DNA of 64,000 bases, from contig JBBRAO010000014.1 in NCBI GenBank assembly GCA_038206725.1, forward strand, positions 192-64,191, written 5' to 3'. Made by a program: the position numbers and the translations under genes. The DNA comes from Candidatus Kapaibacterium sp. GTDB taxonomy: Bacteria > Bacteroidota > Ignavibacteria > Kapaibacteriales > UBA2268. The notes under the pieces are model-generated. The model was given only the letters and a program-made list of their open reading frames with translations, did no database searches and was not told the DNA's origin. Within the stretch, counting starts at the first letter, position 1. Every line of letters begins with the position of its first letter. This document shows positions 9,182 to 50,717 of this stretch, one piece after another.

Positions 9182-10546
9182 ATGAAAAGCAAAATGAAAT
9201 TTAACGGATTATTATTAATCCTCATATTATTGGGATATTTAGCATCCAATGCACAAAATGAAATCACATTAAAACAATGTGTTGAATATTCTTTGAAGAA
9301 TAGCAGCAACATCAAAATGGCAAATTTCGATGTAGCTCTTTCGGAGCAAAGAATAAAAGAAACCACCGGGTTTTACTTACCGAACTTTGGTTTATCTAGT
9401 TCAATAGATAATAATTTATTGATTACTACACAGCTATTGCCTGCTGAAATGCTGGGTGGAAAAGCGGGTACTTTTATTCCGGTCAAATTCGGAACTCCTT
9501 ATAATATGTCTATTGGGCTTCAACTAAACCAAAAGCTTTACGATCTGAGCACGATTTATGATATTAAATCATCGAAAGTCAATAAGGAATTATCGGAACA
9601 AACCGCTCAAAAAACCAATGAAGCGACCATTTATGGAATCAGCGCTACGTATTATCAAGCAATGATAATTCAAATTCAGATAAAAATGCTAAAAACTAAA
9701 TTAGCATCGTCTGACCGTTCATTGAAATCAACAGAGTTGCTTTTTCAAAACGGTGCGGCAAAAAAAATCGATGTTGATAAAATTAGAGTAAGTTACAATA
9801 ATACTAAATCTCAATTACAGCAGGCTGAATTGAGTTATTCTCAATCACTCAATAACTTAAAGTTTCAAATGGGTATGCCGCAGGATAAACAAGTAGTATT
9901 ACAGGACAATGTTTTGGAGAATCTAATAAAGAATCCAAAAAACATAGAAAGCAAAAATTATCAAATCGAAAATACTTTGGATTATAAGCTAAAGCAAACC
10001 AACTTTACTTTGATGGAAATCAATAGGAAAAAAAGTTTAGCGGCTTACCAACCAGTAGTTACTTTATATGGTAATGCAAGAGTAAGCGCAATGCGTAAAG
10101 AATTTAATTTTTTAAAAGCAGGAGAAGATTGGTATCCGAGTTCTGCAGTAGGAATTCAATTATCGTGGTCAATTTTCTCAGGTTTGCAAAGAGATGCACG
10201 CTTAACGCAATCGGAACTTAATATCCAAAAAGCAAAAGAAAGCTTATCGCTTACTGAGCAAAGTTTTAAAGTTGATATATCCAATTTCGAGATGAAGTTC
10301 AAAAATGCTTATGAAAATATACAAAACGAAAAAGAAAATCTGGATTTAGCGGAAAGCGTTTATAAAAACGTTCAATTGCAATACCAGCAAGGTGTAAGCT
10401 CATCGCTTGAACTGATACAAACTGAAAGTTCTTTTGAATTGGCACAAAACACATATTTGAATAAACTTTTTGATTTATTCGTCGCAAGAATGGACCTTGA
10501 AAAAGCTCAAGGTAATCTAATGAATTTTATAAATAATCTACAATAA
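9182..10546 (+). CDS. TolC-family outer membrane efflux protein
   Basis: Signal peptide, two OEP repeats (LKQCVEYSLKNSSNIK...; LDLAESVYKNVQLQYQQG...). Operon context with MFP and RND genes. Confidence 0.85.
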   Translation: MKSKMKFNGLLLILILLGYLASNAQNEITLKQCVEYSLKNSSNIKMANFDVALSEQRIKETTGFYLPNFGLSSSIDNNLLITTQLLPAEMLGGKAGTFIPVKFGTPYNMSIGLQLNQKLYDLSTIYDIKSSKVNKELSEQTAQKTNEATIYGISATYYQAMIIQIQIKMLKTKLASSDRSLKSTELLFQNGAAKKIDVDKIRVSYNNTKSQLQQAELSYSQSLNNLKFQMGMPQDKQVVLQDNVLENLIKNPKNIESKNYQIENTLDYKLKQTNFTLMEINRKKSLAAYQPVVTLYGNARVSAMRKEFNFLKAGEDWYPSSAVGIQLSWSIFSGLQRDARLTQSELNIQKAKESLSLTEQSFKVDISNFEMKFKNAYENIQNEKENLDLAESVYKNVQLQYQQGVSSSLELIQTESSFELAQNTYLNKLFDLFVARMDLEKAQGNLMNFINNLQ

Positions 10547-10554
10547 ATAATATT

Positions 10555-11625
10555 ATGAAAAAATCTAAGAAAACAATAGTAATTGTGGTGGGCCTGATAG
10601 TAATTGCCGTTATTGTAATGCAGTTAAATAACAATCGAAAAAAGATTGTGGCAAACAAAGATGTCAGTACTGATCTAACCTTTGTAACCGTTGGTGTCTC
10701 ACCTGTTAAAAGAATGGCTTTAGACGATACTCTTCGCTTAGTCGGTAATCTTGACGTTGCCTCCGAAATTGATATTCCCGCCGAAGCCGCCGGGAAAATT
10801 ACTATGATCAACGCTGAATTGGGTCAAGCAAAATCGAAAGGTAGTGTTATAGCGACAATTGACGATAAGATGAAGAAAATCGCAGTTCAAAAAGCTAATA
10901 TTGATGTTCAAAAAAGAAAAAAAGATCTAGAAAGAGTCTCGAACTTATTTAAAGGCGGCTCATATACAGAACAACAAATGGATGATATGCAGAATATGTA
11001 CGATAATGCGGTGATTATGTTAGAACAAGCCGAAAAGCAATTATCAGAAACTCGAATCATCTGTCCTGAACGCGGTATAGTAACCAAGAAAAATGTTGAA
11101 GTCGGCGAATATGTAAATATGGGTGCAGCTATTGCGACCATCGTCGATATCTCTAAGTTTAAAATAAAACTTAATGTCTCGGAAATGAATGCGTATTTAT
11201 TGAAAATAGGCGACAAAGCGACAGTAACAACCGACGTTTACCCGGGAATTACATTCCAAGGAAAAGTTAGCTTTATCAGCCCAAAAGGCGACGGATCGCA
11301 CACATATCCTGTAGAAATTGAAATTGTAAATAATAGCAAATACCCATTACGTTCAGGTACATTTGTAAGTGCCCAAATACCTCTGCCAAAATCGAGTGAA
11401 TCATTATATATCCCTCGTGAAGCACTTCAGGGTAGTATTAATGACGCTCAAGTATATCTTGCTGTTAATGGTAAAGCTGTTTTAAGAAGTATCATAGTTG
11501 ATAAAGGAATTAATACGAATAATAATTTTATCAATGTAGTATCGGGACTTAACGTAAATGACCAAGTAATAACTAAAGGTCAATTAAACCTTGTTGAAGG
11601 TAAATCTATCAGAATTATTAAATAA
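10555..11625 (+). CDS. Efflux RND periplasmic adaptor (HlyD/MFP family)
   Basis: N-terminal anchor, lipoyl/hairpin/beta-barrel pattern (GKITMINAELGQ...; PLRSGTFVSAQI). Lies between the TolC and RND genes. Confidence 0.85.
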   Translation: MKKSKKTIVIVVGLIVIAVIVMQLNNNRKKIVANKDVSTDLTFVTVGVSPVKRMALDDTLRLVGNLDVASEIDIPAEAAGKITMINAELGQAKSKGSVIATIDDKMKKIAVQKANIDVQKRKKDLERVSNLFKGGSYTEQQMDDMQNMYDNAVIMLEQAEKQLSETRIICPERGIVTKKNVEVGEYVNMGAAIATIVDISKFKIKLNVSEMNAYLLKIGDKATVTTDVYPGITFQGKVSFISPKGDGSHTYPVEIEIVNNSKYPLRSGTFVSAQIPLPKSSESLYIPREALQGSINDAQVYLAVNGKAVLRSIIVDKGINTNNNFINVVSGLNVNDQVITKGQLNLVEGKSIRIIK

Positions 11626-11636
11626 TAAAGGTTAAT

Positions 11637-14600
11637 ATGTCTATTACTCAACTTGCGATAAAACGACCTACTATGGTAGTGGTGTTTTTTTCAATACTGG
11701 CACTCCTTGGTATCGTTTCATATACAAAATTGAATTATGAATTAATTCCAAAGCTTAGTTTTCCGGTGGTCAGTATTGTTACTATTTACCCGGGTGCTTC
11801 GGCAAAAGAAGTAGAAGGAACAGTTACAAAAGTGATGGAAGATGCTCTTTCTTCGCTCGAAAGGGTTAAAAGCATTCGATCAAGTTCACAGGAAGGTTTT
11901 TCAATGATTACTGTGGAACTTGTTGCTAATACAAATGCCGATTTAGCTTTGCAAAATGCTCAGCGCAAAATAAACGCCATAACATCTAGGTTACCGGTTG
12001 GAGCAAAAACTCCATCGCTCAATAAGTTCTCGTCCGATGAAATACCGGTTATTCAAATGGGTGTTGTTGCTAATATGGAGCCTACTAAACTCTATGATTT
12101 AGTTGATAACCAAATCAAATCTCAACTTTCCAACCTAAGCGGTGTTGGGCAGGTGAGTTTAGTTGGTGGTATTGAACGTGAAATCAGAATCAATGTTGAC
12201 AAAGAAAAACTAATTGCCTATAACATTGGTATCAGTCAAGTATTTCAAGCGGTTTCTGCATCAAATTTAGAAATGCCTACTGGTAAAATTGAAAACAATT
12301 CCAAACAATATTCTGTTCGTTTACTTGGTAAAATCAAATCAATTGAAGAACTTCGGGCAATCACGATAACAAGAAGTGCAAATGGCGGAAGTGTTAAGCT
12401 TTCCGATATAGCTGAAGTTATCGATGGTATTGCCGACCAAACAACATTGAATAAAATCAACGGTGAATCTTCGATTGGTATGATTATTCAAAAACAATCC
12501 GATGCAAACTCTGTTAAGGTTTGTGAACTTATTAAAGCAAAACTTAAAGTCATCGAAAAGGAATATGCAAAGGAAAATGTAAAATTCAATATATCGATGG
12601 ATAATTCGGAATACACATTGGATTCAGCTAATGGCGTATTGAAGGATTTATCACTTGCTATTGTTATTGTAGCTTTAGTGATGTTTTTATTCTTACATAG
12701 TGTTCGAAACTCGTTTATAGTTTTAGTATCTATCCCTACATCTATCATATCAGTTTTTATTGGTATGTATATATTTGATTTTTCATTGAACTTACTAACT
12801 TTAATGGCATTATCGCTCGTAATCGGAATTCTGGTGGATGACTCTATCGTTGTGCTCGAGAATATAACGCGGCATTTGGAAATGGGTAAAGATAAGGTTA
12901 CAGCGTCTTTAGAGGGTAGAAGCGAGATTGGATTCACAGCCGTCGCGATCACTTTGGTTGACGTTGTAGTATTCCTGCCACTTTCTTTAATCAGCGGTAT
13001 GATTGGCAACTTCCTTCGAGAATTCTCGTTAGTTATTGTATTCTCAACATTAATGAGTCTTTTAGTTTCGTTCACCATAACGCCGTTATTAGCATCTCGC
13101 CTCGCAAAGGTTCAAGAACCTACGGATAAAAACTTTATCGGCAGATTATCTATCAGGGTAGAAAATGCTTTCAAAAAGATTGTGGTTTACTACCAAAGAG
13201 CTTTGAGTTGGTCGCTAAAGCACAGAAAAACTGTATATATTTCGGTTACCGCTTTAGTGGTATTGTCATTTTCTTTGGTAGGTATGGGTTTAATCGGTAC
13301 TGCATTTATGAATAACGGCGACCAAGGTGAATTTACGGTCAAATTAGAAGGTGAACCGCAAAATACAATCTATCAAACATCGCAACTTACTCAAAAAGTG
13401 GAAGAGTTACTAAAGAAAAAGCCCGAAGTTGTTAACTTATTTACAAGTATTGGTAGTTCTCAAAACGGATTCAGCAATAGTGTAGAGAGCAACAAGAGCC
13501 AAATTACTGTTAAGATGGTTCCAAAAAACAAACGGTCAATTTCTGTAGAAAAATTCGCCGCTCAAATTAAAATGGAAGTACAAAAGTTTCCGGGCATTAA
13601 AGTTACAGCTACACCTTCTTCATTGATGGGTGGCGCGGATGACGCACCGATTCAAGTATTGTTACGTAGCACCGATGTAGATAGACTTTTTGTGATGGGT
13701 GACAGTATTATGAAAATAGTCAGAACAATCCCGGGTGCAAATGATGTGAAGTTGTCTATTGATAAAAGTAAACCTGAAATACAAATCAACCTTGACCGCG
13801 AGAAAATGGAACAATTAGGGCTTTCCGTTCAATTGGTTGGTAGTACTTTGAATTTGGCTTTTGCCGGTAATACAAACCTTCAATACAGCGAAGGCGACAA
13901 TGATTACGATATTTCTGTACGATTTGACAAATTCAACCGTAAGAAGATTGACGATATCAACTCAATTACTTTTGTGAATAATCAAGGCAAGTTGATTGAA
14001 TTGAAAAACTTTGCAACAATAGTACAAGCTTTGGGTCCAAACAAATTAGAGCGTTACGACCGTATTCCTTCGCTGACAGTAAACGCTTCAGTATTTGGTC
14101 GTCCGGTCGGAACGGTAGGTGATGAAATCAAAAAAGCTATCGGCGAACAAATCACATCAACCGACATAGATATCAGTTACAAAGGACAAATGGAACGTCA
14201 AGCCGAAGCTTTCGGAAGTTTGTTCACCGCGCTTTTTGCCGCTATTTTATTTGTTTACTTATTGATGGTAGCTCTTTATAACTCTTACTTATATCCATTT
14301 GTGGTACTTTTCTCGATACCGGTCGCTGTGATTGGAGCTTTATTTGCTCTTGCGCTCAGCGGTGAAGCCTTGACAATTTATTCTGTGATTGGTATGATTA
14401 TGCTTATCGGTTTGGTGGCGAAGAACGCAATCCTGATTGTGGATTTCACCAATAAACTGCGTGAGAACGGCAGGGCTACCGTTGATGCGTTGTTGGAAGC
14501 CGGTAAGGAAAGGCTTAGACCAATTTTAATGACCACTTTGGCGATGGTGTTCGGTATGCTTCCAATTGCTCTTGCGACGGGAGCCAGCGCAGAAAGTAAA

Positions 14601-14756
14601 AACGGATTAGCTTGGGTTATTATCGGCGGTTTAATAAGTTCTTTATTACTTACTTTGGTTTTAGTACCGACGGTTTACTTGACATTTGAGAAGTATAAAG
14701 GTAAAATTAAACGATTCCGGTCAAAAGAATTGGTTGAAGAAACAACCATAATATAA
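11637..14756 (+). CDS. RND efflux permease (AcrB/HAE1-like)
   Basis: 1039 aa, 12-TM architecture. N-terminus AIKRPTMVVVFF, and conserved GILVDDSIVVLENI and AKNAILIVDF motifs. Confidence 0.95.
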   Translation: MSITQLAIKRPTMVVVFFSILALLGIVSYTKLNYELIPKLSFPVVSIVTIYPGASAKEVEGTVTKVMEDALSSLERVKSIRSSSQEGFSMITVELVANTNADLALQNAQRKINAITSRLPVGAKTPSLNKFSSDEIPVIQMGVVANMEPTKLYDLVDNQIKSQLSNLSGVGQVSLVGGIEREIRINVDKEKLIAYNIGISQVFQAVSASNLEMPTGKIENNSKQYSVRLLGKIKSIEELRAITITRSANGGSVKLSDIAEVIDGIADQTTLNKINGESSIGMIIQKQSDANSVKVCELIKAKLKVIEKEYAKENVKFNISMDNSEYTLDSANGVLKDLSLAIVIVALVMFLFLHSVRNSFIVLVSIPTSIISVFIGMYIFDFSLNLLTLMALSLVIGILVDDSIVVLENITRHLEMGKDKVTASLEGRSEIGFTAVAITLVDVVVFLPLSLISGMIGNFLREFSLVIVFSTLMSLLVSFTITPLLASRLAKVQEPTDKNFIGRLSIRVENAFKKIVVYYQRALSWSLKHRKTVYISVTALVVLSFSLVGMGLIGTAFMNNGDQGEFTVKLEGEPQNTIYQTSQLTQKVEELLKKKPEVVNLFTSIGSSQNGFSNSVESNKSQITVKMVPKNKRSISVEKFAAQIKMEVQKFPGIKVTATPSSLMGGADDAPIQVLLRSTDVDRLFVMGDSIMKIVRTIPGANDVKLSIDKSKPEIQINLDREKMEQLGLSVQLVGSTLNLAFAGNTNLQYSEGDNDYDISVRFDKFNRKKIDDINSITFVNNQGKLIELKNFATIVQALGPNKLERYDRIPSLTVNASVFGRPVGTVGDEIKKAIGEQITSTDIDISYKGQMERQAEAFGSLFTALFAAILFVYLLMVALYNSYLYPFVVLFSIPVAVIGALFALALSGEALTIYSVIGMIMLIGLVAKNAILIVDFTNKLRENGRATVDALLEAGKERLRPILMTTLAMVFGMLPIALATGASAESKNGLAWVIIGGLISSLLLTLVLVPTVYLTFEKYKGKIKRFRSKELVEETTII

Positions 14757-15014: not shown

Positions 15015-15698
15015 TTATTCAATTTCGAAATAGAATTTATTTGATAAAACAGAATTTTCCAAATTACTTTGATACTCACACAAATTAATAAGTTGCATAA
15101 CATTTGGTTTTCTTCTCAATATTGTGCTTTTTGACAAGCAGTCCATATACTTGGCAACATTTACGTCACCATGTTCAGATTCAGCAATTATTCTTGCAAT
15201 AAATCGGTTTCTTAGCAAACATCTAGCTAAAATAGCTTTCTGATTTTCTTTGTTGAGTGAAAAAAACAGGTAACCAATACATGATAAATACCATGTGCTT
15301 TCTTTAAATTGAGTCAACCCTAACGTAAATGCGGTTTTTGAATGATTTTCACCATATTTTCTATATGCACCTTCATTCCTTGGATTTCCATCATCCAACA
15401 ATAATTTTCCAATGTCGACAAATTTTATACCTGGATCATTGAGCTCTGCTAATTTTTTGCAAATATTTATTGTGCAATTATCCAATGAACTAAACTGTGG
15501 AATATCATTAGATGTAATGGGAAAAATTTGAACATGTTTTTGGACAAATTCAATAAAATCGGAATATGGAATATTTATTAGTGTCTCTATATAATTACTT
15601 ACTTCTAAAGTTGGAAATTTGTAACTATAATAGAACATATTTTCATTAATATGCAACTCGTAACTTCTACTGAAGAATTCTTCCATTCGAAAGCTCAT
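15015..15698 (-). CDS. Hypothetical protein, last gene of the island operon (no recognisable domain)
   Basis: 227-aa ORF starting 2 nt after the upstream stop. I recognise no motif. Very AT-rich. Confidence 0.55.
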   Translation of the reverse strand: MSFRMEEFFSRSYELHINENMFYYSYKFPTLEVSNYIETLINIPYSDFIEFVQKHVQIFPITSNDIPQFSSLDNCTINICKKLAELNDPGIKFVDIGKLLLDDGNPRNEGAYRKYGENHSKTAFTLGLTQFKESTWYLSCIGYLFFSLNKENQKAILARCLLRNRFIARIIAESEHGDVNVAKYMDCLSKSTILRRKPNVMQLINLCEYQSNLENSVLSNKFYFEIE

Positions 15699-15700
15699 AT

Positions 15701-16669
15701 TTATTTTTCCTTAGAGTGTGTGCTTAGAATACGCAGTATTTGCCTAATTTCATATTTGCTATCTATATGTGATTTTATAGAATTTTCAAATGTGCTTACA
15801 GAAATGAGCATACGAAAAGCCCTGATTTTCTTGTAAATATCATCTATTTTTCCAGTATCTTTAACTTCTTCATAACCTTCATATATGTCAGTTTGACCTG
15901 ATGCAATTTCATCAAGCACTTTTTTTGCTCTTTTATCAGGGCATTTAGCTATTTCCCCAATTTTTCTTATGTCCGAAGCTTGATTTATTTCTTTATTTTT
16001 AATTTGTTCAACAATTGTTGTTTCTAATTTAGGATTAGATTTGATAGCTTTTTTTATTGATCGGTTTTTAAGTAATTCGTCGTAATAACTCCAGTTTGTT
16101 GGCTGCAAATCATTTACCTTTAGCATATAAGAGAAATTATCAAGCATTCTCTCTGCATCACCCTTTTTTATACCTAACTCTTTAGCCATTGTTTCAACTG
16201 GAAGCTTAGACTCTTTTCTACGTCTATATAAATATCCAGCTTGCTCAAAAGGACTCCAATCTTTTCTCCCTATTATATGATATTGACCCAGAAGCGTGAA
16301 AATAGATAATTCATCAATATCTGAAGGTAAAAGTACACATTTTACTATTCCCCATTCAATAGGTTTATTTTTACATAAAAGTCGATATGCCGCTAATCGG
16401 CTATTGCCTTCAAGAACAACAAAATCGCCATCGCGAACGATCAGAGGATCAATAAGTCCTCCGTTACTTTCAATTGATAGCTTAAGTTGCTTCACATGAT
16501 CCATTTTGGTCATTAATTGCTCAATGCTATTTTGGTCTGGTTTTGATTCATCAGATACTTGTAGAACACTATAAACTCTAGGATTATCCTCATAAAATTT
16601 GAGTGACGCCTGCATGATTTCCACTTCTTTAACTTCGAATTCTTTCTTACCAATCATCATTTTTTTCAT
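15701..16669 (-). CDS. ParB/Srx N-terminal-domain protein (paralogue 2)
   Basis: LIDPLIVRDGDFVVLEGNSRLAAYRLL is the ParB/sulfiredoxin-fold box with the conserved GxxR arginine. It is followed by WSPFEQAGYLY plus an HTH-like segment, the same layout as the 18566-19575 gene. Confidence 0.75.
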   Translation of the reverse strand: MKKMMIGKKEFEVKEVEIMQASLKFYEDNPRVYSVLQVSDESKPDQNSIEQLMTKMDHVKQLKLSIESNGGLIDPLIVRDGDFVVLEGNSRLAAYRLLCKNKPIEWGIVKCVLLPSDIDELSIFTLLGQYHIIGRKDWSPFEQAGYLYRRRKESKLPVETMAKELGIKKGDAERMLDNFSYMLKVNDLQPTNWSYYDELLKNRSIKKAIKSNPKLETTIVEQIKNKEINQASDIRKIGEIAKCPDKRAKKVLDEIASGQTDIYEGYEEVKDTGKIDDIYKKIRAFRMLISVSTFENSIKSHIDSKYEIRQILRILSTHSKEK

Positions 16670-16681
16670 TTTTAAACCCTC

Positions 16682-18151
16682 TTAATTATCATTTAATATT
16701 TCTTTTACTATTTCACCAAAACTATAATCGGCAACTTCTGTATACTTTTTTAATTTAAAATCTCCTTGTGCTAAAAACGCTGCATTTTGTTTGGCTTTAA
16801 GTAAGTGGTCAACCCAAATGTCAATACTGTTTTTAATCATAATATTATATATATGACAGATTTTAGTTTGTGAAATACGATGAATTCTATCTTGTGCTTG
16901 TAAATAATCATCAAGATTAAATCCTCTATCATAGAAAATTACATTATTAGCAATTGTAAGTGTTAAACCTTCTTTTGCTGATTGAGGCGTTGCAAATAAA
17001 ACTTTTGCATCACCGTTTTTGAATGCTCGAACAGAATTTGTTCGATCTTCAATTTTCATTTTGCCTGTTATTTTAACTGCATTCAGGTTCTTGTATTTTC
17101 TTGAGAAATAATCTATATTTCCTGTGAAAATTGACCAAACTATCACTTTCTCATCTCTTCTTATAATTTCTTTTATTAACTCATCGAGTTTTGCTTCTTT
17201 ACCTGAAAAAGAGCAATACAAATCATCTAACAACCGAGGATTTGAAGTAATTTGTACTAATCTTAGTAGTCTTTTAATTGAGTCTGGAGATTCGTCAAGT
17301 AATGTTTTTTCATCTCGCTGCAATAAAATTTGCATTTCAGTCCGCACTTTATTATACATTAGGAATTGTGATTCTTCAAAATCAACATAAGTATCATAAT
17401 ACACTTTATTAGGAAGTGTTATTATACCACTGTTTTTTGTCTCACGAACAGTAAAATCTTTTATTTTATCAAATATTTCGGACACAGATGTCTCAAATAA
17501 ATTTCTTTTTATTTCATTTGTTGATAAGTCATTAGAAAGATCTGTTGTTGATTTGAACTCGCCAAAGTTTGCCCCGAGACTTTTGCCAAAATCAAGAAAG
17601 TAAATTTGAGCCCATATATCATAAGGTCTATTTGCAACAGGTGTACCTGTCATAATAATGCGGATTTTAAATAAACTGGCTATCTCAAAAAAGTCTTGTG
17701 TAAGTTTAGATTCTGGATTCTTTAATTTTGTAGATTCATCAATAATAATGGCAATATTTCTAGTTTTTAGAAATAGTCTGATTCTCTCTTTTTCACCAGA
17801 TATTGTTTCAAAATTTGTAATAACTACTCGAGTTAAGCTATTAAACACATAATAATTCTCACCACGTTTACTAGTCAGTATTTTAGGGTTAATGTTTGTG
17901 TGTATTTCAAACTCTCCACGCCAGTTTTCAACCAATTGTTTTTTTGTGACAATTAGAACAGTATCAATTTCTTTAAATTCTAACCAATACAAAAGGAGAT
18001 CAATTGCAATTTTCGTTTTTCCAAGCCCCTGTTCATGAAAGATTGCTGCAAATGACTTGTCTTTGATTGCTGCAAATGCTTCATATTGATATGGAAATGC
18101 ATCTAACTTGGCTGATAGATTTTGCCCAGGTTTATTTATTATCTTTCTCAT
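16682..18151 (-). CDS. SNF2-family helicase/translocase
   Basis: Motif I HEQGLGKTKIAI, motif II IIDESTKLKN, motif III MTGTPVANRPYDIWAQIYFL, motif VI QAQDRIHRISQTK. Confidence 0.9.
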   Translation of the reverse strand: MRKIINKPGQNLSAKLDAFPYQYEAFAAIKDKSFAAIFHEQGLGKTKIAIDLLLYWLEFKEIDTVLIVTKKQLVENWRGEFEIHTNINPKILTSKRGENYYVFNSLTRVVITNFETISGEKERIRLFLKTRNIAIIIDESTKLKNPESKLTQDFFEIASLFKIRIIMTGTPVANRPYDIWAQIYFLDFGKSLGANFGEFKSTTDLSNDLSTNEIKRNLFETSVSEIFDKIKDFTVRETKNSGIITLPNKVYYDTYVDFEESQFLMYNKVRTEMQILLQRDEKTLLDESPDSIKRLLRLVQITSNPRLLDDLYCSFSGKEAKLDELIKEIIRRDEKVIVWSIFTGNIDYFSRKYKNLNAVKITGKMKIEDRTNSVRAFKNGDAKVLFATPQSAKEGLTLTIANNVIFYDRGFNLDDYLQAQDRIHRISQTKICHIYNIMIKNSIDIWVDHLLKAKQNAAFLAQGDFKLKKYTEVADYSFGEIVKEILNDN

Positions 18152-18561
18152 ATGATACTTATATTCCCTGCGTCGTTTAACAAATGAAACACTGCTGTTG
18201 AATTCAGTTCATTTTTTAATTTTTTTATTAAGTTCTTTATTCTTGCGAAGGAATAGAGTGATGTGCATATAAGAATATGCTTTTCACCATGGAATAATGA
18301 TGCTTCTATAATATATGATTTATATTGTTCTATACTATGTTTTCGATCAATATCATTCATTGTTTTCGCTTCACCAATAATTAAGTACTTTAAATCTTTG
18401 TAGTATAAATCAGGTATAAAATTGCCTATGGTTCTATCTGGTCTTCTACTACTATCAGGTAAATCTATTAATATAAAAGGTATTAACTCACTTGGTATTA
18501 TTGTAGAAGTATGTTCTGCAATTTTTCGTATATAATTAATATGGTCAATTGATTCAGGCAT
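18148..18561 (-). CDS. Small PD-(D/E)xK-fold nuclease-like protein
   Basis: IPDLYY...(13 aa)...LIIGEAKT fits the PD...(D/E)xK restriction-endonuclease-fold core. ATGA overlap with the SNF2 gene start. Confidence 0.6.
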   Translation of the reverse strand: MPESIDHINYIRKIAEHTSTIIPSELIPFILIDLPDSSRRPDRTIGNFIPDLYYKDLKYLIIGEAKTMNDIDRKHSIEQYKSYIIEASLFHGEKHILICTSLYSFARIKNLIKKLKNELNSTAVFHLLNDAGNISII

Positions 18562-18565
18562 ATGA

Positions 18566-19575
18566 CTAATCTTCAGGTTGAATATCCTTTATAATGTCTT
18601 GTAAAACATCGAAAATATTAAGAAGCATGGTTTTCTTTTTATCATAATCTGGATCACTGCTTAATTTTTTTACTTCTTTATATTCTAAGCTGTTAAGTGA
18701 TTCTAAAAATTTCGCGCCTAGAATATCATAGGGGATATTGTTCAATTCGTTATGTGAATTTTCTGTCACAGCAATTTTTTTTACAGCTTCCGATATATTC
18801 TTTTTAAGAAAAACTTTCAATGCTTCTTGATCTTTAAGTACTGCCGGTAATTGTCTGACATTTTGTGCAGTATCAATATTGTCATTTACTACCCATTTCG
18901 CAAAATCTTCTTTAGAAAAACCTTTTGAAGTTAGAGCGAATGTAATTGTAGAACGCTGTAACTCAATAAATTTTGAAAATTCTCTTATGTCAAAATCATC
19001 TCCTGTTTCAGCAACTACTTTCGAATAAAATACTTGCATATCGCGGTAAGCACTTATTAATTTATTAATCTCCGGACTATTGCCACCACACATGGAAATT
19101 ATTGAAGACATTGGCATGTGTTCAATTTCACTAAGTTGGTGTAAATATTTACCTTAGAATATGGATCCCACTCACGAGGTCCAACTAAATGTGATTGTAA
19201 CCTGATTGAGTGTTTTTCCGAATCAGATAATTCAACATAAACGATTGAACTAATATTATCCCAAGGACCTGTTGGGTTTGATATAAGGAACTCTTTGTAG
19301 ATTTGAAGTCTTGTATTGCCCTCAATAACAATTAATTCTCCATCTTTTTCTTGGTTTACAATAATTGGATGAATAATGCCACCACTGACTTTAATTGATT
19401 CCTTTAAGGTATTATAAGAGGTTGATGAATCACCATTGCCTGGATTTGTAAGTGCGAGGGCAATTGCTTCACTTGTTATCTCTCCAGCGTAAATTTCAAG
19501 ATATTGCTTGATTCTTGGGTTGCCTTTATCAAGATGAATATCTGCTATTTTTAATTCTGTGTACTTTGGTTTCAT
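18566..19575 (-). pseudogene. ParB/Srx N-terminal-domain protein (paralogue 1), split by a 1-nt frameshift (ORFs 19099-19575 and 18566-19117)
   Basis: The N-terminal ORF has HPIIVNQEKDGELIVIEGNTRLQIYKEF and WDPYSK. The expected continuation KYLHQLSEIEHMPMSS... runs in the other frame into the 183-aa ORF. Adding one A to the A3 run (plus strand 19148-19150) fuses them into about 335 aa. Confidence 0.7.
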
Positions 19576-20705
19576 TTTTTATACTTATTAATTTGGTCAA
19601 ATCTTAAATCAAAATATTTTTTTGTTGTTTCTGGGTATATTTTTTCAAAATCAAGAAATGCTCGTAAAGCGGAGCAAGTTGTTTCAGTGTTTTTATGGTA
19701 GTTCTGGTTGGCCTCACAAAACTGTCTAAACGACATTTTTTTAAAAAATTGAGGTTGATTGCACCATCTTGCAATTTGAGTATAAAATGTTTGTAGTTCA
19801 GTATTTTTATATTTTTCATGTCTCATAATATAAGGGAGGCATCCGTATTTCATAAGTATTTTAATTCTTTCAAAAGTATTTTAATTCTTTCAAAAGTATT
19901 TATAATATCTTGTTCATTCTGTGAATCATACGCACACATTATATATAGCTTGGTTGTTTTTGTTGAAAACCTCTTCCACAATCTCAATTTTTTTTCAATG
20001 ATATCTTTATCTTCAATATGGTCGAATGCAAAAATAAAATCACCCTTGTATCTTGTATTTGCAAGCCTTTTTGCAATTTTTTCATTCATTAAACGAATAT
20101 CTAGGCCTTGGCGAAATTGAAATGGTTTTTTTGTTGCTTCTAATTCATCTAATATTGTTTCCCAACCTGAAAATGCCAAAAAATTATCATCCCAAAGGTA
20201 TATATAGGGCCTATCCTGGTCAATAAATTCTATTATTGGAGAATGTTTAATTGCTTTATGATATTTCTTGTTTACGCAAAATGAACATTTTCTAAAACAA
20301 CCCCTTGTTGTAAACCCAATGGAATAATTCAAGTAATCAGAAAAACGTTTTTTTGTTTTTCCTTTAAGGATTTCTTCTTCGACGTAGTTTTGATATAATC
20401 CATAATCTGGCACATGATGTTCTATTTTATCCTCAAGAAAATCATCACCATCAGGGAAAAAAACCAGTTCCTCCAATAACGATATTTGGTAGATTTATAA
20501 CATTATCTGGTATTTTAGTAAAAGTAAAAACTTTTGAAATAAATATTTTATCATAAACCAATAAATTATTGTATTTAGTAATTAATTCAACATTGTGGCC
20601 AGCATTTTTATAAAACCCACTTATTTTCATTAAAGCTAGGTTTGGGTGTCTTGTTCCGTTATCTAATAAATCTGCGTCTATAATTCCAACGTTTATTAAT
20701 GCCAC
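19572..20705 (-). pseudogene. Radical SAM protein with an N-terminal Rossmann/B12-binding-like domain, broken into three ORFs
   Basis: CxxxCxxC motif in TRGCFRKCSFC. ORFs 20451-20705, 19850-20476 and 19572-19853 become one reading frame of about 370 aa if one T of a T7 run is removed and one copy of a 20-bp tandem repeat is removed. GTG start. Confidence 0.75.
19854..19901. repeat. 20-bp tandem duplication (2.4 copies of AGTATTTTAATTCTTTCAAA)
   Basis: Exact copies at 19855-19874 and 19875-19894 plus a 7-nt partial copy. It sits exactly at the junction of the radical SAM ORF fragments. Confidence 0.95.
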
Positions 20706-20809
20706 ATTCTAATCACTATAGTAAATAAAAATTCTACAATCATATCACTTTAATGAGTTGTCATTTATCATAATTTTTTGATTCTTCACGAAACGTACAT
20801 CTCATAATG

Positions 20810-20817
20810 CAAATTTA
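20810..20817 (-). promoter_or_regulatory. Candidate -7 promoter element for the island operon (TAaaTTTG on the minus strand)
   Basis: Plus-strand CAAATTTA equals TAAATTTG on the minus strand, about 105 nt upstream of the GTG at 20705. Motif match only. Confidence 0.25.
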
Positions 20818-21020
20818 ATAAATTATTGTTAAATAAATACAGATATTCTTAAAAAGAGGTCATTAATATGCCGCAACCACAACCATTTTCAACCAAAATA
20901 TCCTTTCAAATCTATAATAGTTGGTGTGTTACTGGCACCATTTATCTCTTCCCATAATTCCCCATAATCTGTTGAAAGTCTTCCACCGAGGGCTTTTAGC
21001 CTGAGGAAGATGTATTAAAA

Positions 21021-21168
21021 AAACCTTATTTTATATTCTTAACCTTAGTAGAAAGGCGATATGTGCGAACATAAACCTTATTACCTTATTTTTGCTGTTA
21101 ATAAGCTAATAAGGTTGGAAGATGATGGTGCCGAATTTTCTACTAAGGTTATATGGGAAATAAGGTTT
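21021..21168. repeat. Long nested imperfect inverted repeat built from AACCTTA / TAAGGTT cores (REPIN/MITE-like or protein-binding array)
   Basis: Exact pairings: 21021-21031 with 21158-21168 (11 bp), 21040-21053 with 21138-21151 (14 bp), 21074-21083 with 21107-21116 (10 bp), 21085-21090 with 21100-21105 (6 bp). Confidence 0.8.
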
Positions 21169-21189
21169 TAAGATTCTTCCCCATTCAAA

Positions 21190-21325
21190 ATTTTACATTC
21201 AAAATTCAAAATTGCTCGAGGACGGATTTCCGTTCTGCTCGGGAATGACCAAAACAAATGATGGACAGGTCGCGACCTGTCCCTACATTCAAAAAAACGT
21301 TCCCAAGCGGGAGCTTGGTAACGAG
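21190..21325. repeat. Cluster of GC-rich palindromic hairpins (REP-like) downstream of hpnD
   Basis: Perfect 20-bp palindrome GGACAGGTCGCGACCTGTCC (21263-21282). GTTCCCAAGC-ggga-GCTTGGTAAC (21299-21322). Hairpin at 21217-21241. TACATTCAAAA is repeated at 21194 and 21284. GC content is far above the surroundings. Confidence 0.8.
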
Positions 21326-21334
21326 AAGTGAATT

Positions 21335-22216
21335 TTACTTTCTTAATTTCCAAATCGTCTTAATCGCTATCCCGATTTTTTCCAATTTGCTCAGTTTTAT
21401 TCGGTTTTCGCTAAATACGTTGTAGTTTTTGCTTATGATTTTTTCTAAAATGGCGTGGTATGTGCCTTTCATTATTTCCGATGCGAGCATAAGTCTTTTA
21501 TCCTTTACTTGCGCGAGGTAGCATTCGGTTTTGATATAATTGCTTTCGGCTAATCCGCCTAATTGTTTCATCATAGCAATGAATTTGGTATTATACTCTT
21601 TTGCGGTAAGGTTGGTTGCACTGTAACGATATTTATCGAGTAATTCAGTTGGAATATATCTATAATTCCGCTTAGCATCGTCTTCCACATCGCGCATAAT
21701 ATTGGTGATTTGCAGGGCGTAGCCTAATGAAACAGCGTATTTAGCGGCGTTATCACTCGTATCGCCAAATATATTCAGACAGATCAAACCGACTATTGAT
21801 GCAACACCATAGCAATACTTCAGCATATCTTCGATAGTTTCGTAATCTTTTTTTCGCAGGTCTTGCGATATTCCGTCAAATAAAATTTCTATTTGCGAAA
21901 TGGGTATGCTATATTTGTGAATTGCCCAAGCAAGAGGTTCTAAAAGCGGATAGACAGGGTTACCATAATATATATCCAATATTGCGTCCTTCCAAAATTT
22001 CATCCGCTTTTCTTTCTCTGCAACCTCGCGGTGAGATAAATTATCGGATGAATCAACAATATCGTCTAAATAACTGCATAAAGTATATATACTTGTAATA
22101 GCCGAACGTTTATCCTTCGGCATAAAGAAAAACGATAGTGCAAAATTGGATTCGCAGGTTGCAATCGCGCCATAGCTTTCAATTTGTGCTAAATCTTTTT
22201 TACAAATAGGCTTCAT
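21335..22216 (-). CDS. hpnD: Presqualene diphosphate synthase (squalene/phytoene synthase family)
   Basis: CESNFALSFFFMPKDKRSAITSIYTLCSYLDDIVD and NIMRDVEDD (Asp-rich motifs). 4-nt overlap with the upstream hpnC-like gene. Confidence 0.75.
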   Translation of the reverse strand: MKPICKKDLAQIESYGAIATCESNFALSFFFMPKDKRSAITSIYTLCSYLDDIVDSSDNLSHREVAEKEKRMKFWKDAILDIYYGNPVYPLLEPLAWAIHKYSIPISQIEILFDGISQDLRKKDYETIEDMLKYCYGVASIVGLICLNIFGDTSDNAAKYAVSLGYALQITNIMRDVEDDAKRNYRYIPTELLDKYRYSATNLTAKEYNTKFIAMMKQLGGLAESNYIKTECYLAQVKDKRLMLASEIMKGTYHAILEKIISKNYNVFSENRIKLSKLEKIGIAIKTIWKLRK

Positions 22217-23145
22217 AAAACCATCCTTAATGCTTTAGCAACGATTGTAATCTTATCGAAGGTATTTAATTTTGGACGGAATGTAAAGAGCTCTGCTTTA
22301 TTAGCTATACACTTTTTCAAAATCATTTCACCACCGGCAAGAACCGCGGCAATTTCTAATTTCAAGCGGGAGTTCTTAAGGTTTTTGATTAAACCGCGTC
22401 CTTTGGAGAACAAACTTTGAGTTTCGGCGAATAAATAATCCATACAATTGTTAAAATTCGATGTACTCGGGAAAATGATATTTGCCGAGGTAAAGCATTC
22501 GAGCGGAATGTCGAATCGTTCCAAAATATCGAGCGGGATATAGCATCGGTTGATATTTTTATCAATTGATATATCCTGCCAAAAGTTTGCCATTTGCAAA
22601 GCGGTGCATATAGCGTCGGAGTATTCTAAATTTGGTTTGTTACATTCATCGAAAAGCGATAATACGAGCTCACCAACTGGATTAGCAGAGTATTTGCAAT
22701 AATCATATAATCCGGCTAAAGAAGTAAAAGGTTGGAAATCCGAATCCTTTTTAAAAGCTGTGATTAGCTTCTGAAAAGGGTTCAAAGACAAATTTATTTG
22801 TTTTATCGTATTCTGAAGGGCAAAAAAGATTGGGTGTTTTTGTTCAAGTAATTCATAATTATATGTCAATGAGCTTTGGAATTGTTCCAAGGCTTCTAAT
22901 TTCATTTTAGAGTCGCCCACAAGTTCATCACCTAAATCATCCGCCGTGCGAGCATAAGCGTAAATAGCATAGAAGTGGGGGCGAAGCTCTTTGGGAATAA
23001 GGAACGAACCTACAGGGAAATTTTCGTAATGCTTGGTTGCTATTTTCTTGCAAAAAGCATAAGAATCGGCAAGATTGTTAACTGTGTAACAACCGGCCGA
23101 TTCTTTAACTATTTCTTTGAGATAATTTTGCATATTCATAATCAA
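22213..23145 (-). CDS. hpnC: Hydroxysqualene synthase (squalene synthase HpnC family)
   Basis: KHYENFPVGSFLIPKELRPHFYAIYAYARTADDLGDE is the HpnC signature region. Confidence 0.75.
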   Translation of the reverse strand: MIMNMQNYLKEIVKESAGCYTVNNLADSYAFCKKIATKHYENFPVGSFLIPKELRPHFYAIYAYARTADDLGDELVGDSKMKLEALEQFQSSLTYNYELLEQKHPIFFALQNTIKQINLSLNPFQKLITAFKKDSDFQPFTSLAGLYDYCKYSANPVGELVLSLFDECNKPNLEYSDAICTALQMANFWQDISIDKNINRCYIPLDILERFDIPLECFTSANIIFPSTSNFNNCMDYLFAETQSLFSKGRGLIKNLKNSRLKLEIAAVLAGGEMILKKCIANKAELFTFRPKLNTFDKITIVAKALRMVL

Positions 23146-25820: not shown

Positions 25821-28800
25821 ATGATGAAAAAACAACCATTTATTTACAAGTTTGCCCTTTTGATGACGGCAATATTTGTAATGCTATCGGTTAGCAACAT
25901 CCCTGCGATGGCTCAAGATACAGGCCCCGAGGGATACTGCCTACCAAACCAATGGGTATCAAAACAAAACGCTTTGTATTACTCATACTATATGTGTTAT
26001 GGCGATTACCCTAAAATGTACTCCTTCTATTTAGCAGTACCTGTGCTAACCCTATCTGATTTACAGATATATATGAAAAGCGACCCTACTAATCGCCCTG
26101 TACAAAAAAATTCCGGCGATGTATTCCAAAACTGTTATCAATTTTATTTGATATCAGACTATACAGGTGGGGGTGAATTTGTACCCGGTGAAACTTACGT
26201 AGCACAAATGAGAATAAAACCAAATGATTGGACCTATGACTTTGGTTACATTTATTCTTATTGTGATTTTGGGTATTCTTGGTCTGCCGCTTGGTGTAGT
26301 GTTAGAATGTTTGCAGATTGGAATATGGATGCCGATTTCGCCGATAATCTAAGCCAAAGCAGACCTGAAAATGAATACATTAATCAATATGAATCACATT
26401 TCTGGATGAAAAGTGGTGCTGGATATTGTAATGCTTTCGAGGTAACTCAAGAATTTAAAGTTCCCGAAGATGTAGAATTAAAGAAAACAAGACTACGTAT
26501 AATGGCTTGCCAAGGTTATACTTATGATTATACGACCTGGAAACAAATTCCATATCCTGGACCACAATATGATAAAGATGCTTGTGTTGATGGATATGTT
26601 TACTTGTATGGATATGGTGGTGTAACATATTATGCTTATAACTATGGTTATGGCGAAATAGAAGATTACTTAATCACATTTGCAGTTGCTTTAAAAAGCT
26701 CATTCCCAGATAACGTTGCACCAAATAACATTTTGTTAGCTGGTGAGAAATATAACGGTGAAACCCGTAAAAGAAAAGACAAACCAGATGATCCTCCTGT
26801 ATTGTTCAAACGTCCAATGGTAGAACTTGGCGGTGCAATGAAAGAAGGAACTACATTAAACTATCAAATATTTGGTCCTAAACCTTTGGGTGCAGACGAA
26901 AGCCAAAAATTGGTTTATGAAGCTTTGGATCGCACAACAGGAAGTCCTACAATTGACATCAGTGGTAGCAAATGGCCTAATCAAAAGATAGTACCGATGA
27001 CAAAATCACGCGGTAAATATTCAGTTGGCGGTGACGGCACATTTATGGCTCAATCCGGTGGTGTTTATGAATTACGTTTAACAGTTACTTTACCTGGTAA
27101 ACCACCAAAAGTAATTAAAAAAGAATTCATTTGTTCTTGGGCTAATGACGTAGCCGCATCGAGTATCGAATCTCCATTAACAGATGGTTTCCCACGTTAC
27201 TTTAAATATGCACGTGGATTAACTATGGATGCTATTGGCACATTTACTAATACAGGTCTAAATCCTATTTATAAATTCGATGCTTTTTGCAAAATATATG
27301 ATCCTGATGGACTATTATTCTGGGAAAAATCATATACTTATGATTCCGACAAAGAAGCAACCGGGGTATTAGGACAAGGTAAAATAGCAACCATTAAATT
27401 TGGTTCTGTTAAACCTGATAAAGTTGGTCAATACAAGATGTATATCAAATGCGATTTATTAAGTGCTGCTGATATGGAACCTTTCAATGATAGATTTATG
27501 AGAGAGGGAGATCCTGAATATACATTCGCTGTTGCCGACGAATACGAAGCACAAGCTTATGCATCTGTAATACCTTTAAAAGACAGTAAAACTATTGTAA
27601 TCAATCGTCCATTCTTCCCAATAGGTGATTTCAAAAATAACGGTATTTCTGATATCGGTAACGCCTATGCTAAAATGGAATTCAAACATTTAACATCAAG
27701 CTATTCAAAATCAGTTGATGTAATTATTGAATCATTACCACAAGCACCTGAAGGACAAAACATTCGTTCGGTAAAATTCCCTCCGATTGCTTTAGAAAAA
27801 GCAGGTATGTATGAAGGTACAATGACTATTAAAGCTGTTGGTGACCGTCAAACAAAAAATGATCAAATTAAATTCAATTTTGAAGTAGTTAACTCATTAA
27901 AAGGTGAATTCACAGTTGGTACCGGTGGCGATTTTGCTACTATTGACGATGCGATGAATTCGTTGTACAGAAATGGTATTGATGGTCCTGTTACTTTAAT
28001 ATTAATTGATAAAGTATATAATGTTGGTGATATTAATGTTTCTGCTCCTGCTTGGGATTTGACAACAACAATATTAGGTCATAGTCAAGCCAATCCGATT
28101 AATATCAAACCATCAAAAGAGTTAGAAATACTAAAAGCTTCTATCACAATTAACTTATTTAGTAAACAAGGTATTGGCGTTTTGTTCGGTCAAAGATTAC
28201 AAAACAAATATTCTGGTGCTATAATCAACGAACAATTACCAACAAATTTATTAATTTCTTATGCAAATAACCCTGGCTATATTACAATTGACGGTGGAAA
28301 AAATAAGAGTATTAAATTTGTATTAAATAGTGGACATCCAACTTATGGCGCTGCATTCTTGTTAGCCGGTGGTTCTGAAAATGTTACTATTAAAAACATT
28401 TTAATCGAAAACGGAACTTCTCAAATTAAAAATTCATCTTATGTTCCCGGAACATTCTATAACAAAAAAGATGGTAACAAATTTGAACCTGATGTTGTAC
28501 TTCAAACAAATGAATCATATTCAGCCGGTATTGTTAACCGTGCTAGGATTTCAAAACAAGAACCTATCACAGTAGAAGGCTTACCACAAGATAAAACACA
28601 AGATGCGGGCTATATGCTTGATATCATTCCAAACAGCAACAACGTTTTCGTAAATAATGAAATCAGTGGTTTTGGATTTGGTGTGTTAAGTTTAGGTATG
28701 GGACCGGTTTTAATCAAAGACGTGCAAACAGACAAAGAAACATTAGAAAATCGTTATAATAAAAATACATTAATTGAAAATAACCTTATTACTTCAAGTG

Positions 28801-50244: not shown

Positions 50245-50327
50245 TTTAGATAGAATAAATTTTGTTACAAATACGATTCTAAATTAACATTAATTCACAA
50301 ATAAAACAAATAAAAAATAAAAAAAAA

Positions 50328-50707
50328 GGAGCAGACTATAAGCCGGATTTTGTTCGGTAAATAAATACCGTTGCAATCATTTATCTAAGCGTAAAGTCAC
50401 CAGTACGCTTCAGCAGCCTACCCAAGTATATAAATCGTGAGACTTATCGTCGGAACACCGACTTCCCTAAGGAACTATACTCCTATTTGGCTTTGCTTCG
50501 TGTGGGGTTTACATAGCAGTTTAGTCACCTAAACTCTGGTAAGCTCTTACCTCACCGTTTCACCCTTACCGTTAAAAATAACGGCGGTTTACTTTCTGTT
50601 GCACTTTCCGTCAGCATAACTGCCTTCGAGTTACGAAGCACACTGTTCCGTGAAGTCCGGACTTTCCTCATCTATTATAAAAATAGAAGCGATTGCACAT
50701 CTGCTCC
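50328..50707 (-). ncRNA. rnpB: RNase P RNA, bacterial type A
   Basis: The minus strand reads GGAGCAGATG...GAGGAAAGTCCGGAC...GTGCAACAGAAAG...GTAAGGGTGAAACGGTGAGGTAAGAGC...ACAAAATCCGGCTTATAGTCTGCTCC. All universal CR blocks are present and P1 pairs the two ends. Confidence 0.95.
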
Positions 50708-50717
50708 AAAATCTTTA

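Follow-up and report, generated by a model that had tools for sequence, protein, structure and literature searches.

A six-gene operon on the minus strand at positions 15015-20705 of a 64,000-nucleotide (nt) stretch of DNA from Candidatus Kapaibacterium sp. (GenBank assembly GCA_038206725.1, contig JBBRAO010000014.1, positions 192 to 64,191; hereafter the window) probably represents a restriction-modification-like anti-phage system, in which the radical S-adenosylmethionine (SAM) protein RS and its companion CT would form a DNA-marking module and the cassette ParB1-nuc137-SNF2-ParB2 a mark-dependent restriction module. This assignment is drawn entirely from genomic context. Open reading frame (ORF) calling gave the gene order RS-ParB1-nuc137-SNF2-ParB2-CT. 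An earlier note, made from the letters of the window, had described a radical-SAM modification module coupled to a helicase-nuclease effector, and the conservation of the unit, the swapping of its modules and the location of its homologues in defence islands support that description. The same note had placed the gene set in no named system, and searches of Pfam, NCBIfam and PADLOC likewise gave no assignment. The earlier account is amended in that the local copy is a pseudogenised relic, with frameshifts in RS and ParB1.

In the proposed mechanism, RS (a radical-SAM enzyme whose N-terminal domain is B12-binding-like) and CT (taken as a winged-helix-like DNA-binding domain) would together constitute a self-marking module that places a covalent mark on host DNA. 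Carbon methylation would be the likeliest mark, with a sulfur-containing mark as the alternative. In the restriction module, the two ParB/Srx paralogues may act as nucleoside triphosphate (NTP)-dependent DNA clamps or sensors, the SNF2 ATPase could translocate along DNA, and the small PD-(D/E)xK protein could cleave DNA that does not carry the mark. The steps that we infer are the use of DNA as substrate, the identity of the mark and of the protein that reads it, and the cutting of unmarked DNA. RS/CT is found with four exchangeable restriction-type modules, the cassette exchanges RS/CT for DNA methylases, and phages carry RS without either; this is the pattern expected of a marking module and a restriction module. 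If the proposal is correct, restriction-modification-type immunity would gain a new class of enzyme and probably also a novel DNA modification.

Conservation of the operon and exchange of its modules

Relatives of the operon were collected from two sides. On the RS side, one genome per species was scanned, and the ORFs of the resulting 80 loci were called and clustered; on the cassette side, metagenomes were searched with the nuclease alone, independently of RS, which gave 80 loci, and exact look-ups provided 7 more. DNA similarity between the window and L033, an intact orthologous operon in a Bacteroidetes metagenome-assembled genome (74% nucleotide identity by blastn), covers 20689 to 15024, which is nearly the exact six-gene span, and the flanks are unrelated. 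In the RS-side survey, the cassette adjoins RS/CT in 13 of the 80 loci, whose hosts include Bacillota, Bacteroidota, Kiritimatiellia and Fibrobacteraceae. These loci take three forms, namely RS-cassette-CT as in the window, the cassette followed by a fused RS::CT gene (L015, L024 and L026), and a fused RS::CT followed by the cassette and a second CT (L010). The co-occurrence that the earlier note had suggested looking for is also present in the cassette-side survey, where RS lies within 2.5 kilobases (kb) of 50 of the 60 complete cassettes, found independently of it, and the unit occurs in many anaerobe lineages. Another 8 of the 60 stand inside a DpnII-type operon composed of a Dam-like methyltransferase, an N6/N4 methyltransferase, the cassette and a DpnII endonuclease (L083-L086, L136, L147, L149 and L154; for example, L083:5294-11753). 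The remaining 2 have neither RS nor methyltransferase/DpnII, one with a short flank and the other near a contig end after an accessory gene. The order ParB1-nuclease-SNF2-ParB2 never varies in this survey. Because the Dam-like and N6/N4 methyltransferases with DpnII replace RS/CT around the same cassette, RS may itself act as a modification module, and ParB-nuclease-SNF2-ParB would be a portable restriction cassette that plugs into two unrelated modification systems.

The constancy of the cassette, set against the variability of its site (with RS on one side and CT on the other, ahead of a fused RS::CT gene, or flanked by the methylases and DpnII), might instead reflect a self-sufficient defence or selfish module that nests in other defence operons to borrow their promoters and is independent of RS. 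The cassette always looks inserted at a gene boundary, and at L010 the fused RS::CT is accompanied by a second CT after the cassette. This explanation is unlikely, since an autonomous system should often stand alone, whereas 58 of the 60 complete cassettes adjoin a modification module (50 RS and 8 methyltransferase/DpnII), and since 4-nt overlaps couple the cassette genes translationally to RS and CT.

The two-module reading is extended by the other partners of RS/CT. Besides the cassette (13 loci), these are a PbeABCD-like module composed of a helicase, a gene of ~60 amino acids (aa), an SMC-like ATPase and a ~144-aa gene (~27 loci; expect (E) values of 1e-214 for PbeA and 7e-108 for PbeC), DndF, DndG and DndH (4 loci, all Clostridium; 4e-144, 2.5e-116 and an E value reported as 0) and a GmrSD_N/GmrSD_C protein (7 loci). 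The published PbeB and PbeD have 66 and 152 aa, respectively (PMC6459918). RS::CT stands directly upstream of the PbeABCD-like and DndFGH genes at loci within L003-L081, for example L012:10001-16578 and L009:10001-20408, and no recurrent gene cluster resembling DndA-E or SspA-D was found near the RS loci of other genomes. Cultured carriers include Clostridium cavendishii DSM 21758 and C. hydrogeniformans DSM 21757 (RS::CT with DndFGH; L009 and L013), Acidaminobacter sp. JC074 and Peptacetobacter hominis (RS with PbeABCD; L006 and L043) and, for the cassette with RS::CT, Clostridium paridis YIM B02565 (L024). Xiong et al. reported in 2019 that 320 of 553 PbeAC pairs had no dndCD within 10 kb and that 165 had neither dndCD nor a methylase, and suggested that PbeABCD pairs with other modifications (PMC6459918). 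RS::CT, directly upstream of PbeABCD and DndFGH, would thus be a concrete candidate partner for such “solitary” modules. As a family, this radical-SAM module appears to be widespread and uncurated, and beside several restriction modules it stands in for DNA-modification genes.

The neighbourhoods of the homologues were judged from their sequences to be defence islands and not partition loci, which agrees with the defence setting that the earlier note had weighed against a plasmid-partition setting. PADLOC analysis of 109 flanking proteins of RS loci gave MADS, AriA, Abi, Stk2, RT, Cas1, SspH and DrmD, and other defence genes near homologous loci include PLD-helicase, CTD1/MComp1, SIR2 and OLD-TOPRIM with UvrD.

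Several optional or neighbouring genes were seen at individual loci. A ~500-aa GHKL ATPase (HATPase_c_3) lies by the fused RS::CT in L124, L127 and L145 (for example, L145:12992-14437), a ~510-aa protein with no Pfam match follows CT at loci within L130-L150 (for example, L143:11943-13490), and a small XRE-type helix-turn-helix (HTH) gene may precede RS. The L083 DpnII-type operon is flanked by a SIR2 protein and by a Gabija-looking pair of OLD-TOPRIM/AAA_15 and UvrD proteins. A DUF5131 gene of the phage Gp37/Gp68 type (L087:12322-13056, minus strand) stands beside one RS-cassette locus, with PIN, SocA_Panacea and AAA_15/RloB genes near it.

In viruses, RS occurs without CT and without a restriction module in 76 of 78 IMG/VR loci, the exceptions being L170 and L204. 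The stand-alone viral RS is usually 350-400 aa long. An N6/N4 DNA methylase is its most frequent conserved neighbour (22 loci), followed by an SNF2 helicase (15), a C5 DNA methylase (13) and a terminase (11). In deposited phages, RS is annotated just as a “radical SAM domain protein”; Clostridium phage phiCT453B and Bacteroides LoVEphage are among the carriers. Occurrence of RS alone beside DNA methylases in phages would fit the pattern of an orphan protective modification enzyme, and if this is true, many gut, rumen and clostridial phages with RS alone should have modified DNA. Longer viral RS proteins were also observed (L238, 720 aa; L235, 660 aa; L198, 602 aa), one of which has two tandem RS-like halves. 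Plasmid records gave distant RS-only copies and nothing else of the system; one of them, H18 (LC711081.1, 23159-25117, uncultured archaeon), is a distant RS homologue annotated as a radical-SAM protein with an N-terminal intein/homing domain.

These distributions allow a broader proposal, which is plausible though short of likely. RS::CT could be the first radical-SAM writer of a self/non-self DNA mark, a one-protein module confined to anaerobes and interchangeable with DndABCDE/SspABCD and with DNA methyltransferases. It could be the missing partner of “solitary” PbeABCD and DndFGH and could have been copied by phages as an orphan counter-defence; its mark could be an uncatalogued modification, such as radical C-methylation or a sulfur-containing adduct. 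The named hosts of the RS system are mostly anaerobes, as would be expected of iron-sulfur chemistry that is sensitive to oxygen. The system may have been overlooked for this reason, since screens in aerobic E. coli would miss it. At curated thresholds, PADLOC, Pfam and NCBIfam gave no name to RS, CT or the nuclease, and RS::CT had no PADLOC match. Within a limited coverage of the literature, a radical-SAM modification module is undescribed in a 2024 reappraisal of Dnd (PMC10853773), in reviews of host-dependent restriction-modification (2025) and of defence discovery (late 2025), and in the PbeABCD study (PMC6459918).

RS and CT as a candidate marking module

RS (19572..20705, minus strand) is radical-SAM-like and has 370 aa once repaired; its N-terminal domain is Rossmann/B12-binding-like and precedes a CxxxCxxC barrel. 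Searches gave 6333 RS homologues, of which the best 120 show 63-78% identity, carry no Pfam domain and are called “hypothetical protein” where named; most of these 120 are ~630 aa long. Three cysteines of the motif (C136, C140 and C143) are invariant across 76 RS homologues, down to ~42% identity, and are present in the repaired window RS, and four C-terminal cysteines are conserved in 79-96% of sequences. RS matches phrog_9298 at 2.7e-57, and comparison of the RS::CT profile with PDB sequences gave no useful match. The AlphaFold2 (AF2) model of the fused homologue P0001 (627 aa, 76% identical to the window RS) has a predicted local distance difference test (pLDDT) score of 86.8. In Foldseek searches this model matched MgmA (9ccb, E 1.5e-6), MiaB (7mjz, 4.2e-6) and RimO (4jc0), each with a probability of 1.0, in alignments of 360-430 columns that span the N-terminal Rossmann-like domain and the barrel. 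The matches to class-B methylases and methylthiotransferases range in E value from 1.5e-6 to 1e-3 at a sequence identity of ~10-11%. Because the motif, the PHROG match and the Foldseek match agree, RS is assigned, at the level of a structural model, a genuine radical-SAM fold. Thus, of the radical-SAM identity given in the earlier note, the motif and the fold of a homologue bear it out, and the Pfam domain score falls below the cut-off.

MgmA, MiaB and RimO share with RS the N-terminal Rossmann-like domain followed by the CxxxCxxC barrel. In contrast to RS, the methylthiotransferases possess an N-terminal three-cysteine auxiliary cluster, in place of which RS has four partly conserved C-terminal cysteines, and RS::CT carries CT where the methylthiotransferases have a TRAM domain.

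These fold relatives act on protein (MgmA and RimO) or tRNA (MiaB), and no solved radical-SAM enzyme among the Foldseek matches acts on DNA. Prokaryotic viperins, the known radical-SAM enzymes of defence, act on nucleotides. RS might accordingly make an antiviral small molecule or nucleotide analogue in the manner of viperin, or modify RNA or protein, with its neighbours acting as independent effectors. This is quite unlikely given the company that RS keeps: DNA methyltransferases stand in for it at the same cassette, RS::CT holds the position of the dnd/ssp modification genes beside PbeABCD and DndFGH, the phage copies lie beside DNA methylases with no effector partner, and CT is winged-helix-like.

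CT (15015..15698, minus strand; 227 aa, intact) had been regarded in the earlier note as an orphan, and this does not hold. The window CT aligns with residues 429-620 of the 627-aa P0001 (BLASTP E 3e-23), with KYGENHSK and RRKPN motifs in common, and the ~255 extra C-terminal residues of the ~630-aa RS relatives align to it. By sequence, CT is a detached C-terminal domain of the RS::CT protein family. RS and CT in relatives are either fused or split into adjacent genes, and CT adjoins or is fused to RS in the loci examined; the methylase variant of the cassette gave no CT match. For the window CT, the AF2 model (pLDDT 86.5) is helical, with an H-b-H-H-b-b topology in which the conserved KYGENHxK motif lies on the third helix, and its core is, as modelled, winged-helix-like. 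The low-probability Foldseek matches of this model are mostly winged-helix proteins. Some CT homologues are fused to Peptidase_S24 (L143:10790-11956; P0316 and P0317), which is the LexA/CI architecture whose N-terminal part binds DNA, and some versions may accordingly self-cleave in response to DNA damage.

Cassette proteins

SNF2 (16682..18151, minus strand; 489 aa, intact) is a minimal SNF2-family ATPase/translocase, and its assignment from sequence is unambiguous. As the earlier note had said, its motifs are intact (GLGKT, DEST, TGTP and QAQDRIHR in the translation), and Pfam SNF2-rel_dom (1.5e-25, 90.3 bits) and Helicase_C (5.3e-18, 65.7 bits) both exceed the threshold. In PADLOC, the helicase core matched ZorD (4.5e-42), DpdE (7.9e-37), DrmD (4.8e-17) and BrxH (7e-16), and the operon proteins together gave no named system. 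Apart from generic helicase similarity, no NCBIfam match to the six proteins exceeded the threshold.

ParB1 (18566..19575, minus strand; 336 aa once repaired) and ParB2 (15701..16669, minus strand; 322 aa, intact) are paralogues, as their profiles align with an hhalign probability of 99.9 and an E value of 2e-31. An N-P-R box and an E-G-N-(S/T)-R box are invariant in both alignments, the latter being EGNTR in ParB1 and EGNSR in ParB2; they correspond to the arginine-containing boxes (NPxxPR-like and GxxR) of the ParB/Srx N-terminal domain. ParB1 matched PD-Lambda-5_A in PADLOC (6e-7) and a ParB-like partition family in PHROG (9e-7), and ParB2 matched PDC-M38A in PADLOC (1.4e-10). The boxes and the paralogy thus agree with the ParB/Srx pair that had been read from the letters; Pfam ParB_N, at 17.9 bits (E 0.003), remains below its curated threshold of 26.3, and a profile search against solved ParB, Noc and SbnI proteins gave no significant match (E 0.1-0.6).

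The small putative PD-(D/E)xK nuclease, nuc137 (18148..18561, minus strand; 137 aa, intact), belongs to a family of 781 representative clusters, nearly all 130-145 aa long. Residues H7, D51, G63, E64, A65, K66, H75 and Q79 are invariant or nearly so in 75 unique homologues (median identity 33%). The D...E-A-K motif thus agrees with the nuclease fold proposed earlier, and no match was obtained at the curated threshold in Pfam, PADLOC or NCBIfam, nor a useful one among PDB sequences.

The make-up of the cassette could also suit a modification helper, in which the ParB-like NTPases and the SNF2 motor open or scan DNA for RS or for the methylases. A precedent is provided by Dpd and Dnd, whose modification halves include the ParB-like proteins DpdB and DndB, respectively (PMC10853773), and in the methylase variant a separate DpnII endonuclease supplies restriction. 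Such a role is improbable: a conserved nuclease-like protein, in which the D...E-A-K motif is invariant, is part of the cassette, and RS::CT occurs with other partners (Pbe, DndFGH and GmrSD-like proteins) and alone in phages, so helpers would not be needed.

Points weighing against the proposed function

Several results weigh against the assignment of RS/CT as a DNA-marking module and of the cassette as its restriction module. For RS, Pfam Radical_SAM (PF04055) scores 13.3-14.3 bits against a cut-off of 29.5 and aligns the cysteine motif alone. To our knowledge, there is no precedent for radical-SAM chemistry on duplex DNA as a self-mark, and the action of RS on DNA, as opposed to RNA, protein or a nucleotide, is presumed. 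For CT, Foldseek comparison of the model with PDB and viral structures gave no significant match (best E values of 0.46 and 0.87), so the structural check proposed earlier succeeded for the RS homologue, with its MgmA, MiaB and RimO matches, and not for CT; the Peptidase_S24 fusion would suit a LexA-like regulator no less than a targeting domain. In the cassette, the ParB/Srx assignment of ParB1 and ParB2 stands at the level of motifs, as does that of nuc137 as a putative PD-(D/E)xK nuclease, which its D...E-A-K motif fits. The methylase variant already has a DpnII endonuclease, so the cassette need not be the sole or main restriction activity. Finally, adjacency alone is insufficient proof that the cassette is coupled to RS.

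Comparison with known systems

The closest analogy is to the phosphorothioate systems (DndABCDE-DndFGH, DndCDEA-PbeABCD and SspABCD-SspE), which also combine self-marking and restriction modules and, like the homologues described here, are located in defence islands. In other genomes, RS::CT is found directly upstream of bona fide PbeA/PbeC, of DndF/G/H and of a DUF262/DUF1524-type enzyme. In contrast to those systems, the window operon has no DndA, C, D or E and no SspA-D, its presumed marker would be one radical-SAM protein carrying a DNA-binding-like domain of a novel kind, and ParB-nuclease-SNF2-ParB is unlike any known phosphorothioate-type restriction module.

The Dpd system likewise includes ParB-like DpdB as well as DpdE, a helicase of the SNF2 type that the window SNF2 matches at 7.9e-37; the match is to the generic helicase core only. 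On the other hand, the operon has no DpdA (TGT-like), DpdC or preQ0 pathway, and the ParB protein of Dpd belongs to the modification half. The DpnII-type operon that carries the cassette keeps its four genes in the same order, ParB-nuclease-SNF2-ParB (nuclease identity 36-43%), with the modification genes on one side and the final gene of the operon on the other. It differs in that ordinary SAM-dependent N6-adenine/N4 methylases provide the mark, a classical endonuclease is present, and RS and CT are absent. DISARM, BREX and Zorya also include an SNF2-family ATPase within a multi-gene defence operon; the window differs in having no DrmA/B/C, PglX/PglZ/BrxC or ZorA/B, and the PADLOC/NCBIfam matches are confined to SNF2. 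Membership in Dpd, DISARM or Zorya was rejected, as the helicase core alone matches. Types I-III restriction-modification differ in that none of the six window proteins contains a methyltransferase domain.

Decay of the local copy

The RS gene is broken into the ORF fragments 20705-20451, 20476-19850 and 19853-19572, and the ParB1 gene into 19575-19099 and 19117-18566, all on the minus strand. Two lesions in RS and one in ParB1 account for these fragments. At 20451..20465 (minus strand), one extra base in a T7-C3 run leads to a TGA stop after residue 84 of RS. At 19858..19897 (minus strand), an exact 20-nt tandem duplication (ACTTTTGAAAGAATTAAAAT twice; repeat family D8) shifts the frame again. 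In ParB1, a 1-nt deletion on the minus strand at ~19151/19152 makes the local gene a pseudogene, where L033 has AAGGCCAAA and the window AAGGT-AAA. Repair of the lesions yields a 370-aa RS with CxxxCxxC and a 336-aa ParB1, close to the ~370 and ~335 aa anticipated in the earlier note, and all three lesions were confirmed against L033, in which the 20-nt duplication is absent.

The remainder of the window contains long intact ORFs of up to 1959 aa, and therefore poor sequence quality is not the cause of the lesions. The 84-aa RS fragment recurs in an independent assembly, L254 (a Logan assembly of the same organism), which is identical to window 21103-18551 except that it does not have the 20-nt duplication, and the truncated 158-aa ParB1 product recurs in two independent Logan assemblies. 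Since the same RS and ParB1 frameshifts occur in independent assemblies, both are real and fixed in the population, and the 20-nt duplication is either polymorphic or an assembly artefact. Sequencing error as a source of the frameshifts was rejected, as two of the three recur in independent assemblies. Because RS and ParB1 each carry a fixed frameshift, the presumed marking enzyme and one component of the presumed restriction module appear to be lost, and the copy of the operon in the window is, as judged from its sequence, a decaying relic that is no longer functional.

Setting of the operon in the window

The ORF list agrees with the description of one minus-strand operon with 4-nt overlaps or 2-12 nt gaps: the overlaps are at RS/ParB1 and nuclease/SNF2, and the other junctions are gaps of 4, 12 and 2 nt. 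The operon is AT-richer than its flanks, as had been estimated by eye, with a guanine-cytosine (GC) content of 0.28-0.35, mostly ~0.30, against 0.33-0.42. It also lies, as the earlier note had stated, between unrelated operons, namely an RND-type efflux operon OEP-HlyD-AcrB (9182-14756, plus strand) on the left and two SQS_PSY (squalene-synthase-like) genes (21335-23145, minus strand) on the right. Domain and tRNA scans agree that there is no methyltransferase in the operon, no integrase and, in the whole window, no tRNA, and a repeat search found no att-like direct repeats bracketing the operon. A plasmid or mobile-element maintenance module of the ParB partition type, without a defence role, to which the two ParB-like genes, the AT-rich composition and the apparent horizontal acquisition might point, is highly improbable and was rejected, as the operon has neither a ParA (unlike ParABS) nor a replication gene or integrase, att-like repeats do not flank it, no tRNA occurs in the window, the context between efflux and squalene-synthase genes is chromosomal, and the homologues are found in chromosomal defence islands and in metagenomic contigs with immune genes, with plasmids holding distant RS alone.

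The non-coding leader upstream of RS (20706..21334, minus strand; 630 bp) is the presumed promoter site, and the terminators of the SQS_PSY gene upstream lie in it as well. A promoter scan of the leader gave scores no better than those of shuffled sequence, and an Rfam scan gave no match near the operon. Within the leader, positions 21074-21090 and 21100-21116 form a 17-nt inverted repeat that is nearly perfect, and the short sequence AATAAGGTT... occurs as a direct repeat at 21108 and 21159. No homologue of the small HTH gene found upstream at other RS loci was detected in it, and the small HTH, GHKL-ATPase and ~510-aa accessory genes of some related loci are absent from the window.

Elsewhere in the window, the sole Rfam match is a class-A bacterial RNase P RNA (50323-50708, minus strand; 283 bits). 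The 1959-aa ORF (25821-31700, plus strand) shows only a weak C-terminal FlgD_ig-like match and may encode a large secreted or surface protein.

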